DNA of 58,998 nucleotides, from sequence record LT907986.1; one strand, given 5' to 3'. Of the stretch, positions 1,038-58,735 are shown piece by piece; the stretch's first letter is position 1; each line of letters begins with the position of its first letter. This DNA is from Escherichia phage vB_Eco_SLUR25. The position numbers and the translations under genes are program-made. The notes beneath the pieces are model-generated. The model searched no databases and was not told the DNA's origin. It saw only the letters and a list, made by a program, of their open reading frames with translations.

Positions 1038-1591
1038 TTTAATACCTCTTTAGACTGTTCAATTTCTAACGCACGCTGCGCCGACGCAATAATGTCTTTC
1101 AAATCTTCTACCAGATGTTTATGACCCCGTTCGCCAGGCTGCAACGCTTTTTTAATCAAATGCTGCAAAGCTGGGTTAGTTGTTTTCCAAGCTTCCAAGA
1201 CATCATACACGTCCACGATGCATTTTACAACATTGCCGTTTTCATCTTTACCATAAATAACTTTCTGATATTTATTCATGGGAATTTTAGATGGTTCATA
1301 TTTCGTAAAAATTGCGGTTTTATCAATTCTCCAGTCGGGCAAATTTGCTTCAATAGATTGTTTGACGTAATCATCCGCAACAATATATCTCCAGGCTATA
1401 ATATCTTGAACTTTATAAGGGCTATTCTCATCCATAGCCGAACGCCCTTCTATAGCCCAATCCCATCCATGTAATAGATTCTTAACGTGTGTGCCGTTGC
1501 GCAAACGAACTTCAAACTTCTCATTACGAAGAAAAATAGGCATTCCTTTACCGTCGTGTTGGTGCCAAATTTTATTCAAATTATCTTTCAT
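1034..1591 (-). CDS. hypothetical protein embedded in the 7-deazaguanine cluster
   Basis: ORF track 1034..1636; ATG at 1591 (MKDNLNKIW...) sits 2 nt after the stop of the upstream gene, so the shorter start is preferred; no recognisable motif. Confidence 0.5.
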   Translation of the reverse strand: MKDNLNKIWHQHDGKGMPIFLRNEKFEVRLRNGTHVKNLLHGWDWAIEGRSAMDENSPYKVQDIIAWRYIVADDYVKQSIEANLPDWRIDKTAIFTKYEPSKIPMNKYQKVIYGKDENGNVVKCIVDVYDVLEAWKTTNPALQHLIKKALQPGERGHKHLVEDLKDIIASAQRALEIEQSKEVLK

Positions 1592-1593
1592 TT

Positions 1594-2073
1594 TTACGCT
1601 CTTGCTGTACGTGAATGAACTTCGTAAACAACCCAAAGGATAGCGGATGCTGTGAACTTACTTAAGCTCATTGCTACCATTGATCCCGGATTAACAATAC
1701 CTATAATACTTAAGAACACAATGGAGTCAATCGGTACAGCTACCAAAGAGCTGATAAATACGCGTTGATGAAAAGGCTTCTTGGTGACCGTGTATACTAC
1801 ATAATCAGCAAACTCACTAAGCGCAAAAGACGCAACGGATGCAACTACAACCGCAGGATTACCGAACACCCAGCTAAGGATGCAACCAACGATCATTGCA
1901 GGGATAACGCCTTTGCCAGCGTTACGCTGTGCGTAATCACGCAGAACAAAGATAATGCCTACAAAGAAAGCCATCATTGGGACTACGCCAAGTGGCGTAT
2001 TAAGCATCGGAAGGTAGGAAAAGCCCAGGTTTACGAATGTAATTGCAGCCAGATAAGCAACGATAAATTTCAT
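1594..2073 (-). CDS. multi-pass membrane protein, putative queuosine-precursor transporter (YhhQ/DUF165-like, short form)
   Basis: 159 aa, 4-5 hydrophobic helices; segments FFVGIIFVLRDY and VAVPIDSIVFLSIIG resemble recalled E. coli YhhQ; lies between queD and queC. Confidence 0.4.
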   Translation of the reverse strand: MKFIVAYLAAITFVNLGFSYLPMLNTPLGVVPMMAFFVGIIFVLRDYAQRNAGKGVIPAMIVGCILSWVFGNPAVVVASVASFALSEFADYVVYTVTKKPFHQRVFISSLVAVPIDSIVFLSIIGIVNPGSMVAMSLSKFTASAILWVVYEVHSRTARA

Positions 2074-54312: not shown

Positions 54313-54376
54313 TTTGTATCTCCTCTTGTTGTATGCATATATTAAAACAGACCCGCGAAGGGTCTGCAAGTAGAAT

Positions 54377-56362
54377 TTAGGCGTATCCCATGTCTTCGAG
54401 ATACTTCTCTGCTTTAGCTATATAAGCATCATAATCTATGTCGTCCGGTATTTTATCCGGTAGCGTCATGATCGGGACACCTCCCGCGCTACCAGCTACA
54501 CGGTTGCCCGAGTTAGCATAGATTATTTCAGGTGTTTCTTCATTAGTGCTTAAATACCAGCGTACAACCTTACCCAAAAATTCGCCATTCCATACCGCGC
54601 CGCCTTTTACCGCACGTAGGATAATGAATTTTCTAATATCGTTGCAATTGCGTATAGTACGAGAAACAGGCGTACCGTGGGCCAAACATTCACATACAGC
54701 TTCCATAATGATCTCACCAGTACAGTTCTTTTGAAGACCTGTCTTTGCGAACCACCCTTTACGTTTAATTTCAACATTTCCTTCCTCGTCAGGTTCTTTT
54801 ACTGCAACATAGTTATTGACGTTAGCGCTGTACAGCTTGTCATAGTAGTTGGACTCCATTTCAAAGCCTGTCACGGATTCCCACCACTTGATCATATTAT
54901 CAACGAAGTCCTGCATGTGGTCTGGATACTTAACCACAATGCCGTCCGTGTTCGCTGAAATTACTTTAACACCATTCAACTCAAATGCTTCAATAAGCAT
55001 CAACAGTGAAAGCTGCCCTGTTAATGTAACTTGTATCAATAATTGCGGCGCGTAAAGGACAGACCACATAGACCCCAGCTTACCAAACGATCCGTTAATA
55101 ACGATCTTCAGCGTGTTGGCTGTGTTCTTGTCTCCGCTGTGCTTAGCTGCAATACGGCGGTCTACAATACTTTTATAAACACGAAGGAACGCTGGTCCCA
55201 ACTGTTCTGGATATAAGCCCTGATTAAGAATGATTGAAGGATAATAAGACGTTACGTCAATGTCCCGCTTTTTGATACCAGGCTCTTTACCGTGGCCAGC
55301 ACACTCTTCGGAGCTATGCAAACCACCAATACCCATACGGTAGACACCGTCCGCAATCTTGATCTCAAGACCTGTTAATGCAGGAGGTAAGCTGACACCA
55401 CCGTTATCGCTAACAATAAAGCGACAGTCCCGAACAATATCCAAAACACTATTCATCAAAGGAGTTTGAAAACGAATAAAGTCTGGTATGTTGTATGCAT
55501 ACTTTGTTCCAGGATAAACTTGCGGACGCTGTGGGCGCACGCCCGTCAACGCTTGGATTTCGTGCTTAATTACGTCTTCTGCAATCTGTGCATCTGAGCG
55601 TGAACGCAGGTCCACACCGTATTCTTGCGACATAATTTCACGCAAGTGAATAGGCTCTTGTAATGCAATAAAACATTCTTCCGTCTGTACAAGGTCGTTA
55701 ATACAGTACCAGCGCACAATAAGCATCTGGTCTTGCGTCAACATTGTATTAGGCTTGAACGGTAAATCCTGCATACGACGAGTATGTACACGTCCGCCGT
55801 ATTGTTTCAAACCGCCGGACCCAGGCAGCACTTCCATGATATCGATGTGGTTAACGTTCTGCATACGCTTGAGACGGTAACTCTTCAATACATCCGAAGG
55901 ACGCCAGTCTTCAACGATTATTTTATCAGTTGCGTCTTTAAGCTGAGCATTAGAGCAGCCGTTAAGCGCAAGCGTAGCAATGGGCATATCGTACCCGTTA
56001 CCGTTAAAGCTTACGATAAGGAAGTTTGTCATTACCCAGTTAAGTAGCAAGCAATTCAAACTACAACCGTGATACATTTCGAAGTAGACAACTTTCTTAG
56101 TCCTTACTCCGCGGAATGCGATCAAGAAGTAGTTTGGATAACATTCAATATCATATACAAGCGGTTCGCGGTTAATCCATGCTTGAATAAGTTCATCCTG
56201 CGTATACAGGTTGTATTGGAAGTTCCGCGCTTCCTCAAGGTTAGGCAAATAATCCTGGCGCTCCCAAGTGCGCTCCGGCGGTAAACGTTTAACCTTTTCT
56301 TTCTTTGCTTTTGGCTCAGGCGGTAAGTCCTGCCAAAAGAAACCAATAGCATCTGTCCGCAT
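54377..56362 (-). CDS. family B DNA polymerase with 3'-5' exonuclease domain
   Basis: Exo motifs VYDIECYP and FNGNGYDMP; pol motifs DVTSYYPSI, KIVINGSFGK, ANTDG; ATG 56362 in TAATG overlap. Confidence 0.75.
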   Translation of the reverse strand: MRTDAIGFFWQDLPPEPKAKKEKVKRLPPERTWERQDYLPNLEEARNFQYNLYTQDELIQAWINREPLVYDIECYPNYFLIAFRGVRTKKVVYFEMYHGCSLNCLLLNWVMTNFLIVSFNGNGYDMPIATLALNGCSNAQLKDATDKIIVEDWRPSDVLKSYRLKRMQNVNHIDIMEVLPGSGGLKQYGGRVHTRRMQDLPFKPNTMLTQDQMLIVRWYCINDLVQTEECFIALQEPIHLREIMSQEYGVDLRSRSDAQIAEDVIKHEIQALTGVRPQRPQVYPGTKYAYNIPDFIRFQTPLMNSVLDIVRDCRFIVSDNGGVSLPPALTGLEIKIADGVYRMGIGGLHSSEECAGHGKEPGIKKRDIDVTSYYPSIILNQGLYPEQLGPAFLRVYKSIVDRRIAAKHSGDKNTANTLKIVINGSFGKLGSMWSVLYAPQLLIQVTLTGQLSLLMLIEAFELNGVKVISANTDGIVVKYPDHMQDFVDNMIKWWESVTGFEMESNYYDKLYSANVNNYVAVKEPDEEGNVEIKRKGWFAKTGLQKNCTGEIIMEAVCECLAHGTPVSRTIRNCNDIRKFIILRAVKGGAVWNGEFLGKVVRWYLSTNEETPEIIYANSGNRVAGSAGGVPIMTLPDKIPDDIDYDAYIAKAEKYLEDMGYA

Positions 56363-57315
56363 TAGACACGTTCTCCAATTAACACACCGCGAAGATTTTC
56401 CCCAAAGAATGCGCAAGGTTGCGGATATAAACTAAAGTCCGCAGTCTTAACCACATTTTCGAGTAATAACAGGATGTCGATATTGTAAACTCCTGTTATT
56501 GATCTGTCCTGCAATACGAAGCTTGCACCTTCTGCATCATCGTAATGAGTACGTGCTAGACCGTTTTCAATATATACGCGAGGACGATCTTCCGCAAAAG
56601 GTTTGATTTTATGCAAGCCCTCAAAAAGACCTGGATCAACAGGATGTGCATTGCATTGAACATTTAAAATACGACGTATATCAGGCCACTCCGCATCAAT
56701 AAGCTGTGTTCGCAACCAGCGACCTTCCGGATAATGAAACGTCACATTGTTCTTGCTAACCTGAATATGTGTCGGGTTAGCTTTAATGCGCAGTATTTCT
56801 TTAATAGCAACAGACGGTATTATGCAGTCAATAGGGAATTGATTACCAAACCAATATTCCGCAATGGTGACGTTATTTGTAGCAAACAGGCTACCGTTAT
56901 TAATCAGAATACCACAGGCCCACGGGCGGGACGCATCCGAGCCTACAAACGGAGCAACAGACTTCACACCGTGTACGAAGCGAGCACCGTCTATTTCGTA
57001 TAAATCGCCTTCAGGGAATACGTGAGGCGTTTCCTTGTCAATGCAGCGTATAGCAACACGAAACGGTCCGGACTTGATATTAAGTTTACCGTTAGCCATC
57101 ATTGTTAACTGTACGGTTTCGTCACAGTTTGAAATAGCTTTAATCATAGGACCAGCTTCGGGCTTGCAATCAATATCCAGCTCAATAGGGCTACCCAGTG
57201 CAATAACACCGTTAAAGCCCTGTACCTGTCCATCACGGATAAGAAAACTGGTAAGCCCTTCTACCAGTTCCTTTTTAGCGACGGAGCCTTGAACAAATTT
57301 AAGAGCGTCTAACAT
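56362..57315 (-). CDS. DNA polymerase sliding clamp (DnaN/beta-clamp-like)
   Basis: 317 aa; QLIDAEWPDIRRILN resembles recalled DnaN motif KLVDGRFPDYRRVLP; immediately upstream of polymerase gene. Confidence 0.5.
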   Translation of the reverse strand: MLDALKFVQGSVAKKELVEGLTSFLIRDGQVQGFNGVIALGSPIELDIDCKPEAGPMIKAISNCDETVQLTMMANGKLNIKSGPFRVAIRCIDKETPHVFPEGDLYEIDGARFVHGVKSVAPFVGSDASRPWACGILINNGSLFATNNVTIAEYWFGNQFPIDCIIPSVAIKEILRIKANPTHIQVSKNNVTFHYPEGRWLRTQLIDAEWPDIRRILNVQCNAHPVDPGLFEGLHKIKPFAEDRPRVYIENGLARTHYDDAEGASFVLQDRSITGVYNIDILLLLENVVKTADFSLYPQPCAFFGENLRGVLIGERV

Positions 57316-57542
57316 TAGCGATCCTCGATTGCTCTAATTGTGGTTAAATCTAATTCACAGGTTGGAGGGTATCCATAAAGTCCCATTTGTTTTCCTTGTG
57401 CATTAAACCATGTACCTGACGGATCCTGCCACTGCTTAGGTGTCTTGTGGAGAAATACTACTCTGTTTTCACCGTAATAATTAATTCTTACGCCCGTGTG
57501 AGTATATTTACGTTTACCTTTTGGTCTTCTTAAGTTAGCCAT
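57315..57542 (-). CDS. hypothetical protein
   Basis: 75 aa from ATG 57542 (57545 is TTG); overlaps dpdA stop. Confidence 0.4.
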   Translation of the reverse strand: MANLRRPKGKRKYTHTGVRINYYGENRVVFLHKTPKQWQDPSGTWFNAQGKQMGLYGYPPTCELDLTTIRAIEDR

Positions 57543-58462
57543 CAAAACAACTCCATTACACGATCACGGAATGTGCCGTCATGGGTAGCGTTAATGTTTG
57601 CAGCAATTACACCATACGCCCATAAGTTGAAGGCAGCACGTGATTCATAGATTGTTGATAAACGTTCGTAAGTGAAACCGTTTTGCTCAAGGTATTTAAG
57701 GACAGCGTCTTGTTCAATCTCAGTTAATGTTGAAACATGCTTACCAAAATGATGGCGGTCCGGTGACTTATCTGATACGCGCATTGGTCCCCACGGAGGG
57801 GTAACCACACTTCCAAACGCTGCTGCTTGAATCCAGGAGGATGAGTCGCAGCTATACCACGGATAACGTTCCATGATGGTTGTTGACGTAATACCAAACG
57901 CATGAAGTTTAATCTTAGCACGTCCGCTACCGTCGCAAATATATTTGTCCCACATGCGGTCAAGCCAAGTCTTAAGCGTGTCCGTTGAACGTCCCACCAT
58001 ACCCCCAATGGTGATATATTCGTAGTTCTTCATGTAGTATTCAAGATAGCGGAAGTCCTCCCCAAAGTGAAAGCAAGGTAACGGTTTAGCACCGCGTGCT
58101 TCCATTTCAAGCTGGTTACGGTAGGTTTGCAACGGATCACCGATACCATCAAGCACCGATGCCATTACCGCACCATCTTCTACCCGCAAAATATCTTTAT
58201 TGCGCTTGATGTATTCGCAGTATTCAACAATATCAATGTGAGCACCTAACGAGTGCGCGGAGAATGCACCGGAGTCGAGAAACACTTTAGCTCCATCCGC
58301 ACGCATCTGATCAACATACTTTTGACGTCCAACGTAGTGGTATGATTCCAAAATATGGGGCAGATTGCGCGTGATATTTTTCTCATGCTCCGACAGCTTT
58401 TCATAACGCTGCTGTCCAGGCATATATCCGTTCGTGTAAACTGCTGCCATAAAAACGTTCAT
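57542..58462 (-). CDS. dpdA: DpdA-like DNA 7-deazaguanine transglycosylase (TGT-fold)
   Basis: 306 aa; LDSGAF matches TGT catalytic Asp region (DSGGFQ-like); ITIGGMVG matches TGT GG(L/M)(S/V)G motif; clustered with folE/queD/queC/queE. Confidence 0.75.
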   Translation of the reverse strand: MNVFMAAVYTNGYMPGQQRYEKLSEHEKNITRNLPHILESYHYVGRQKYVDQMRADGAKVFLDSGAFSAHSLGAHIDIVEYCEYIKRNKDILRVEDGAVMASVLDGIGDPLQTYRNQLEMEARGAKPLPCFHFGEDFRYLEYYMKNYEYITIGGMVGRSTDTLKTWLDRMWDKYICDGSGRAKIKLHAFGITSTTIMERYPWYSCDSSSWIQAAAFGSVVTPPWGPMRVSDKSPDRHHFGKHVSTLTEIEQDAVLKYLEQNGFTYERLSTIYESRAAFNLWAYGVIAANINATHDGTFRDRVMELF

Positions 58463-58672: not shown

Positions 58673-58708
58673 ATTTCCTCCAATGACTAAAAAGCCCATA
58701 CCAGTATT

Positions 58709-58735
58709 ATGACCGATATGGGCTTGATCTGTAAA
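58709..58735 (-). terminator. terminator-like hairpin after folE
   Basis: Stem AGCCCATA/TATGGGCT with long loop, followed on minus strand by TTTTAG. Confidence 0.35.

Follow-up and report, generated by a model that had tools for sequence, protein, structure and literature searches.

The presence of a gene for a beta-type sliding clamp immediately ahead of a family B DNA polymerase gene, in a phage that also encodes the 7-deazaguanine DNA transglycosylase DpdA, has led us to ask which proteins this clamp serves. The locus lies on the minus strand of the 58,998-nucleotide sequence of Escherichia phage vB_Eco_SLUR25 (LT907986.1), the whole of which is called the window here, and its genes follow one another in the order dpdA, orf75, clamp gene, polB. 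Taken as a whole, our analyses make it quite probable that these four genes form one coupled unit in which the clamp partners the family B polymerase (PolB); the N-terminus of the polymerase would be its docking site on the clamp, DpdA may be a client of the same clamp, and the clamp may be loaded by the host. The clamp-polymerase pair as such is already known from GenBank annotation, PHROG families and genome papers, and in the form in which it was first noted, in a preliminary description of this DNA, it adds nothing beyond that annotation; the N-terminal tether of the polymerase and the tail of DpdA are new, testable hypotheses that we infer from sequence comparison. About 4.5 kb around the clamp and polymerase genes are 100% identical to Escherichia phage vB_Eco_SLUR63 (LR025196.1; 58,998 bp, rotated), a member of the genus Seuratvirus in the Queuovirinae, whose protein accessions are used below. 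The features on which the argument turns are the following (aa, amino acids).

57542..58462, minus strand: dpdA, 7-deazaguanine (preQ0) DNA transglycosylase, first large gene of the coupled unit (phrog_887, E 8e-96)
57545..57559, minus strand: DpdA pentapeptide V-M-E-L-F followed by the stop, resembling a beta-clamp-binding motif (family consensus Q-x-[GSE]-L-F-COOH)
56362..57315, minus strand: beta-type sliding clamp, 317 aa, VAY27811 (phrog_947 "DNA polymerase processivity factor", E 5e-82; structure model and Foldseek; LR025196.1 annotation)
56662..56706, minus strand: clamp residues 204-218, QLIDAEWPDIRRILN, aligned with E. coli beta KLVDGRFPDYRRVLP by phmmer and hhalign
54377..56362, minus strand: family B DNA polymerase with a 3'-5' exonuclease domain, 661 aa, VAY27810 (PHROG, phmmer, structure model, Foldseek and motifs)
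56219..56362, minus strand: polymerase residues 1-48, N-terminal module made of M-R-T-D-A-I-G-F-F-W-Q-D, a Lys/Pro-rich linker and W..YLPN; candidate clamp tether
54949..54966, minus strand: polymerase motif C, S469-A-N-T-D-G474

The clamp, its polymerase and its loading

The preliminary description had taken the 317-aa protein for a homologue of the bacterial beta clamp, DnaN, from the likeness of QLIDAEWPDIRRILN to the DnaN motif KLVDGRFPDYRRVLP, and both the likeness and the fold are borne out. The AlphaFold2 (AF2) model, computed from a 53-sequence alignment, has a predicted local distance difference test score (pLDDT) of 93 and a predicted template modelling score (pTM) of 0.87, and shows a secondary-structure pattern repeated three times; only bacterial DnaN proteins make up its best 50 Foldseek matches in the PDB (E ~1e-20, query TM-score 0.76-0.83, 13-17% identity), in alignments of about 360 columns that span all three domains. 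By phmmer, clamp residues 155-224 align with E. coli beta residues 183-255 (E 0.01), with QLIDAEWPDIRRILN falling on KLVDGRFPDYRRVLP, and hhalign of the clamp family profile against E. coli DnaN (82% probability, domains 1-2) gives the same placement. The E. coli segment includes P242, R246 and V247, which we take to line the peptide-binding pocket. Among the 53 homologues W210 and P211 never vary, and L205 and L217 hardly do; the invariant residues A145-T146-N147-N148 and W210-P211 align with E. coli ATDGHRL and FPDYRRV, two segments that presumably line the same pocket, and R309-G310..G314 at the C-terminus is invariant too. The phage protein shares with E. coli DnaN the three-domain fold and the presumed pocket segment (W-P-D-I-R-R-I against F-P-D-Y-R-R-V), and differs from it in being about 50 residues shorter (317 against 366 aa) and in lying under the Pfam thresholds for all three DnaN domains: DNA_pol3_beta, DNA_pol3_beta_2 and DNA_pol3_beta_3 all miss the gathering score, the second with 22.3 bits against a threshold of 27 over the same stretch as QLIDAEWPDIRRILN, and matches to the N- and C-domains are absent. 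Judged by its predicted fold, it is a compact three-domain bacterial beta-type sliding clamp.

The length of 661 aa for the polymerase counts from the ATG at 56362 (the mechanical list of open reading frames, ORFs, begins at an upstream TTG). The protein belongs to phrog_1252 (E 3e-228) and is matched by phmmer to Sso PolB1 (1s5j, E 1.9e-5) and E. coli Pol II (E 0.009) over motifs B-C. With a pLDDT of 91.4, its AF2 model finds only family B polymerases among the best 50 PDB matches (Foldseek probability 1.00, E 1e-15 to 1e-12), archaeal PolB, E. coli Pol II and Pol alpha included; the TM-score is only about 0.45, which we attribute to differing domain orientation. Pfam DNA_pol_B and DNA_pol_B_exo do not reach the gathering score, the sole match being PF10108 (14.5 against 24 bits), and since all Pfam matches of the clamp and of the polymerase are below threshold, both proteins were assigned to their families through PHROGs and fold. 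The clear B-family motifs reported at first sight hold throughout the 53-sequence alignment, in which ExoI (D71/E73), ExoII (N120/D125), ExoIII (Y219/D223), motif A (D369-x-x-S372-Y-Y374-P375) and motif B (K419-x3-N423-G-S-F-G427) are invariant, as is motif C, which reads N471-T-D473-G instead of the usual DTDS. Motifs and modelled fold together mark the 661-aa protein as a divergent replicative polymerase of family B with proofreading.

Whether it should be called Pol II-like, as it was initially, depends on what is compared. The label fits loosely by sequence, and the E. coli enzyme is likewise a proofreading family B polymerase with a clamp as partner; it does not fit the C-terminus, where the phage protein has no QLGLF-type tail. 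The phage polymerase differs further by its N-terminal candidate tether and its NTDG motif C, and the phage system by having no cognate clamp-loader gene. T4 and RB69 offer another comparison. Their gp45 forms a trimer of two-domain subunits and has a dedicated loader, gp44/62, and the clamp peptide of gp43 is C-terminal. As there, the window encodes both a clamp and a family B replicase, the latter held by a short terminal peptide (here a candidate one); the clamp of the window is by contrast three-domain and beta-type, without an encoded loader, and the candidate peptide is N-terminal.

How such a clamp might reach DNA is a question in itself. Neither the LR025196.1 annotation nor a scan with PHROG and Pfam of 20 phage proteins, of replication or unknown function, revealed a clamp loader; the only ATPase is Sak4-like/AAA_24. 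Kazlauskas and Venclovas raised the possibility that loader-less viral clamps act in a non-ring form and tied this mode to an elevated isoelectric point, pI (PMC3201878). The clamp homologue would then be an open, loader-independent DNA-binding processivity factor like herpesvirus UL42/UL44, to which the missing loader gene and the ~50 aa by which it falls short of DnaN would be congenial. Its pI of 5.56 (family median 5.58; E. coli beta 5.25) is not elevated, and all three of its domains align with ring-forming DnaN; on the pI, we judge a non-ring mode very unlikely. The lack of an encoded loader, combined with an acidic pI like that of ring clamps, points weakly to a ring that would need a loader, presumably the DnaX complex of the host.

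The N-terminal module of the polymerase

A search for a clamp-binding motif in the polymerase gave a divided answer. There is no QLGLF-type pentapeptide at the C-terminus, which ends in ...KYLEDMGYA without a tail past the last conserved block, whereas a candidate module is seen at the N-terminus, where the peptide MRTDAIGFFWQDLPP carries F9 and W10. The module is about 45 aa long and has the signature RxDxxG[FLM]FW; R2, D4, G7, F9, W10 and D12 are invariant in the 53 homologues and the first 12 residues nearly so. In the AF2 model, residues 1-8 have a pLDDT below 50 and no secondary structure appears before residue 32. It seems reasonable to argue, with fair confidence, that the polymerase docks on the clamp through this flexible module and its core D-x-[ILVA]-G-[FLM]-F-W. 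Docking would in that case be N-terminal, unlike that through the C-terminal tail of E. coli Pol II, T4/RB69 gp43 and archaeal PolB.

The strongest evidence for a tether comes from family A polymerases that carry the same module, found within a comparative set of about 240 related loci that served for both the module and the DpdA tail. VpKK5, PSASB_03 and Synechococcus phage Ssp-JY38 have, next after their clamp gene, the gene for a family A polymerase (PolA; Pfam DNA_pol_A, E 1e-64 to 1e-71) whose N-terminus, M-S-R-F-D-A-I-G-M-F-W-E-D...PPIP..W, aligns with that of the window PolB over about 45 residues, and the R, D, G, F, W, D, PP and W of the module are invariant across the two families. 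We read the module as a putative clamp tether because it stays with the clamp while the catalytic core, A or B, is exchanged. If this is true, a tether moving between polymerase families would be a new mode of replicase attachment to the beta clamp, and the N-terminal module a possible marker for predicting clamp-dependent phage polymerases. As an observation apart, the slot 3' of the clamp holds a family B or a family A polymerase depending on the phage (loci L083, L084, L085 and L097-L177), a case of non-orthologous displacement.

Counts of loci point the same way. Eighty PolB loci from IMG/VR were fetched by catalytic-core patterns only and then scored with profile hidden Markov models; clamp and motif occur together in 43 of them, the clamp without the motif in 8, the motif without the clamp in none, and neither in 23. 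The N-terminal aromatic motif is therefore present in 43 of 51 loci with a clamp gene directly upstream against 0 of 23 clamp-less ones (Fisher p ~1e-12, uncorrected for ancestry). Polymerases of the clamp-less relatives begin 5-30 aa ahead of ExoI, and a hidden clamp was not found in their loci by hmmsearch --max at E<=10. Among further PolA loci, 66 have clamp and motif, and the two without a clamp are also without the motif.

The partner of the module need not be the clamp. It could bind another co-travelling component of the replisome, such as the primase-helicase, the single-stranded DNA-binding protein (SSB) with a DUF669 domain or the Sak4-like ATPase, and G-F-F-W is no textbook beta-binding motif. 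Because the clamp-less relatives differ in the rest of their replication module, their upstream genes encoding an exonuclease and a gp2.5-like SSB, co-occurrence by itself fails to single out the clamp. Three observations speak for the clamp nonetheless: in 109 loci with the motif its gene directly precedes that of the polymerase, in most cases with an overlap at the polymerase start; the module is kept next to the same clamp when a family A polymerase replaces the family B one; and PolBs beside a divergent clamp exchange the module for other terminal aromatic peptides, N-terminal MFFDD or C-terminal ...KLKLF, ...TGKLF, ...NPTLF and ...SASLF, as would be expected of clamp-binding peptides. We consider a different partner distinctly unlikely.

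Docking of the polymerase on the clamp through its N-terminus would have a precedent in position, if not in sequence. Hda, a regulator and not a polymerase, carries the beta-clamp-binding peptide QLSLPL at its extreme N-terminus, so that an N-terminal clamp-binding peptide in a client is known; the motif of Hda fits the QLxLxL consensus, whereas that of the phage polymerase is D-x-h-G-[FLM]-F-W. We also observed that the polymerases of some clamp-less PolB relatives (L061, L050 and L073) end in clamp-binding-like peptides (KQMELFV, NPELFLAAAL and QGTLFNRG), and may use the beta clamp of their host.

The C-terminal tail of DpdA

DpdA of the window ends in ...RDRVMELF, its C-terminal peptide THDGTFRDRVMELF carrying L305 and F306. 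The published beta-clamp-binding consensus, QL(S/D)LF, is found at protein C-termini (PMC9690074). In an alignment of 32 DpdAs that reaches down to 30% identity, L305 and F306 show a conservation of 90% or more, in the sequence conserved core, variable linker, then L-F. The ending [LFIM]F occurs within the last 6 residues of 90 out of 96 DpdAs, against 3.4% of background ORFs, and 42 of the 96 have a strict Q-x-x-[LF]-F end (QMGLF, QLGLF, QMELF, QPGLF and others; QPGLF is that of VpKK5). A clamp is present in 96 of 96 dpdA loci, and a DpdA-centred scan finds it in 72 of the 72 loci with at least 2.5 kb of downstream sequence. The association reaches well beyond the relatives of the window:

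Rhizobium phage RHEph05: clamp gene after dpdA; DpdA ends in EQRLF
Achromobacter phage ART: clamp 3 kb downstream of dpdA with other genes between; DpdA ends in QMELLG
Synechococcus phage Ssp-JY38: clamp gene after dpdA; DpdA ends in PVLF
Streptococcus phage Dp-1 (Gram-positive host): DpdA is gp7 and DnaN gp10; DpdA ends in QRRLF
Bacillus phage Flasso (Gram-positive host): DnaN two genes downstream of dpdA; DpdA ends in QGKLF

In Dp-1 and Flasso, the clamp gene is not followed by a polymerase of the window type. A QxxLF-type tail was not found in the DpdAs of Qyrzula, phiSM and Mufasa8, which have no neighbouring clamp. We give somewhat better than an even chance to the clamp having DpdA as a second client, with a C-terminal Q-x-x-L-F-type pentapeptide (VMELF in the window) as the contact.

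What would DpdA gain from a clamp? The DpdA orthologue of phage CAjan, at least 99% identical to that of the window (by tblastn, with 29 phage records in that identity band), is indispensable for dPreQ0, and about 32% of G is replaced in this way (PMC6884629). For its activity, bacterial DpdA depends on DpdB, an ATPase of the ParB fold that forms a closed dimer around a tunnel of the size of double-stranded DNA (PMC10164549), and DNMT1 is listed as a PCNA client (PMC9690074). The former likeness lies in the need of DpdA for a DNA-encircling partner, the latter in a DNA-modifying enzyme that rides a sliding clamp; the hypothetical phage partner differs from both in being a beta-type clamp reached via a C-terminal pentapeptide. 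The window holds no ParB/DpdB-like partner by phmmer with two actinophage ParB-like proteins or by a search for the DGQQR pattern, and our phage scans found neither an ATPase partner nor a ParB-fold protein for the phage DpdA. It is tempting to hypothesize that the clamp would hold DpdA, which exchanges G for the protective modified base preQ0, on freshly replicated duplex DNA as PCNA holds DNMT1, and would take the role of the DNA-encircling DpdB ATPase. If true, the exchange of guanine for deazaguanine would be coupled to the replication fork with the clamp substituting for DpdB, and, with the same dpdA-clamp linkage and tail seen in Dp-1 and Flasso, it would apply generally within one large DpdA subfamily. 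A clamp-binding tail would be a concrete answer to how a phage DpdA reaches a third of the guanines of a genome within one infection cycle, and how it works without DpdB. The open-access papers and bioRxiv yielded no paper linking DpdA to a clamp, and a 2016 paper on host-phage interactions does not list orf7 and orf10 of Dp-1. Put together with the polymerase module, the picture would be that of a tool-belt with two clients, the replicase attached via a portable N-terminal tether (PolA or PolB) and DpdA via its C-terminal QxxLF; for this combined proposal we would put the chances a little below even.

The preliminary description had placed the link with deazaguanine elsewhere, in the copying of 7-deazaguanine-containing templates by the pair. 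Membership of the pair in the dpdA operon, adjoining the preQ0 synthesis genes, is what such an adaptation would predict. Against it, the clamp and this same polymerase occur together without dpdA in relatives, sister phages with dpdA and a clamp have a family A polymerase instead, 7-deazaguanine derivatives do not inhibit polymerases (introduction of PMC6884629), and CAjan, a near-identical phage, has no preQ0 in its DNA when DpdA, a transglycosylase homologue, is missing (PMC6884629). An adaptation of the clamp-PolB pair to such templates is hardly credible in this light, and the link between clamp and deazaguanine would run from the clamp to DpdA and not through polymerase copying.

Several points weigh against docking of the polymerase and DpdA on the clamp, a proposal drawn from comparative evidence, the structures having been predicted as monomers. 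The PolA scan is biased, the N-terminal motif itself having been among its search patterns; 8 PolB loci have a clamp and lack the regular-expression motif; and G-F-F-W resembles QLxLF only loosely. On the side of DpdA, the window protein has V and not Q at position one of the motif, and a tail of the Q-x-x-L-F type would fit the host beta clamp as well. Epa33, a Pseudomonas phage without an adjacent clamp, encodes a distant DpdA-like protein (L094:2363-3088) ending in ...GQAELSL. The hexapeptide variant of the clamp-binding motif is QLxLxL, which this end resembles. Co-occurrence counts also carry uncorrected shared ancestry, and clamp, module and DpdA tail could be co-inherited as one replication module without contact. 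The locus would then be an ordinary clamp-polymerase pair within an early operon inherited as a block, and the ...ELF of DpdA a part of its own fold, an oligomer interface or a DNA contact; the linkage evidence is indeed all comparative and partly confounded by ancestry, and two large IMG/VR scans yielded mostly one broad phage lineage. Yet linkage and QxxLF end are kept at about 30% DpdA identity, including in Dp-1 and Flasso where this polymerase does not follow the clamp, ART retains the linkage despite the genes between dpdA and clamp, the motif comes after a linker of variable length and sequence as in short linear motifs, and the DpdAs of phages without a neighbouring clamp have no motif. 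An ordinary pair is, to our mind, an unlikely explanation, though one to be taken seriously.

Some further observations concern DpdA itself. Compared with the PDB as a single sequence and as a 32-sequence profile, it has no significant match, and the end of its catalytic domain is not fixed from a solved structure. The genes for the actinophage DpdAs of Qyrzula (L091:1-1919) and Mufasa8 (L093:2435-3965), proteins without a QxxLF tail, lie beside ParB-like genes; this parallels bacterial DpdA-DpdB and suggests, by analogy, that DpdA may always pair with some DNA-encircling partner. Clostridium phage phiCTP1 gp51 (L095:4520-5419) was considered as a DpdA and rejected, as it is DNA-methyltransferase-like (TSPPY) and has no similarity to DpdA. 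Its gene lies two genes upstream of a Dp-1-type DnaN, in the slot that dpdA occupies in Dp-1 and Flasso, and is another DNA-modifying enzyme gene beside a phage clamp.

Coupling of the genes and distribution of the pair

The translational coupling of clamp and polymerase through TAATG, pointed out in the preliminary description, can be read directly from the junction GTGTCTAATGCGG, where the TAA stop of the clamp and the ATG start of the polymerase share one base within GTCTAATGCGG. Such one-base overlaps of stop and start recur at all three junctions from dpdA through orf75 and clamp to polymerase (TGATG, TAATG and TAATG). The remaining features of the region are:

57315..57542, minus strand: orf75, of phrog_38388 (unknown function), a coding sequence in LR025196.1 between dpdA and the clamp gene, with one-base overlaps on both sides
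54347..54367, minus strand: terminator-like hairpin and T-run, beginning 10 nucleotides past the polymerase stop (consensus scan and sequence; a pattern match only)
58735..58706, minus strand: promoter-like site

The hairpin is the probable end of the unit, and dpdA-orf75-clamp-polB (54347..58462, minus strand) looks like a single translationally coupled unit. In the window and in annotated close relatives, orf75 separates dpdA from the clamp gene; its product contains an internal K-Q-M-G-L-Y-G, like the DpdA-type motif, which may be due to chance.

The names given to the two proteins agree with our assignments. In LR025196.1 the clamp is labelled "DNA polymerase beta subunit" and the polymerase "DNA polymerase elongation subunit 1", and RefSeq relatives carry "DNA polymerase processivity factor" and "DNA polymerase". 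CAjan, Seurat-like and other phages are 94-97.5% identical to the clamp/polymerase region, and this polB serves as a marker gene in the paper that describes the SLUR phages (PMC5758909). Queuovirinae and relatives (9g, CAjan, Seurat, Vid5, PaMx25 and RHEph05) have the gene pair in the same order, 40-100% identical and already named "DNA polymerase processivity factor" or "beta subunit" and "DNA polymerase B"; the window does not differ from them and is one of their number. For the related phage Vid5, a 2018 paper described "DNA polymerase B" and then the beta subunit, the latter matched by HHpred to a DnaN structure with a probability of 100% (PMC6266253). A biochemical study of these homologues was not found in open-access papers and bioRxiv.

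A phage-borne beta-clamp homologue had at first been thought uncommon, an impression that does not survive a wider search, the family having its own phrog_947 and the pair having been described in Vid5. By tblastn, the clamp is present in 361 of 50,697 phage records, many of them without dpdA, such as siphoviruses of ~43 kb that infect Pseudomonas and Stenotrophomonas, Acinetobacter Loki and Salmonella BP63-like phages. When 1.84 billion representatives were searched with a profile, 2,879 proteins (representatives at 50% identity) matched, nearly all of 310-335 aa among the 150 matches listed; because just these 2,879 were found, the profile stops short of the bulk of cellular DnaNs. In BFVD, 104 viral structures match the clamp at E<=0.001, many of them named beta clamp. 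The polymerase family is wider than the clamp, with 875 phage records that include 9NA-like and crAss-like phages. The compact, loader-less clamp family amounts to some 2,900 representatives, and no experimental characterisation of it was found in open-access papers and bioRxiv.

Two minor observations may be added. In the preQ0 gene cluster of the window (1467..1946, minus strand), a 159-aa protein matches Pfam Vut_1 with 26.5 bits against a cut-off of 27.2; we take Vut_1 to be the family of the preQ0/preQ1 transporter YhhQ, and the protein may be a phage precursor-uptake protein. Finally, the clamp ORFs of RcTitan-like phages (L074:20-1274, L078:4620-5847 and L065:4632-5892) are about 100 aa longer and end in ...DPDDEIPF, a sequence similar to the tip of bacterial SSB at its C-terminus; it would be unusual for a clamp to have an SSB-type tail.

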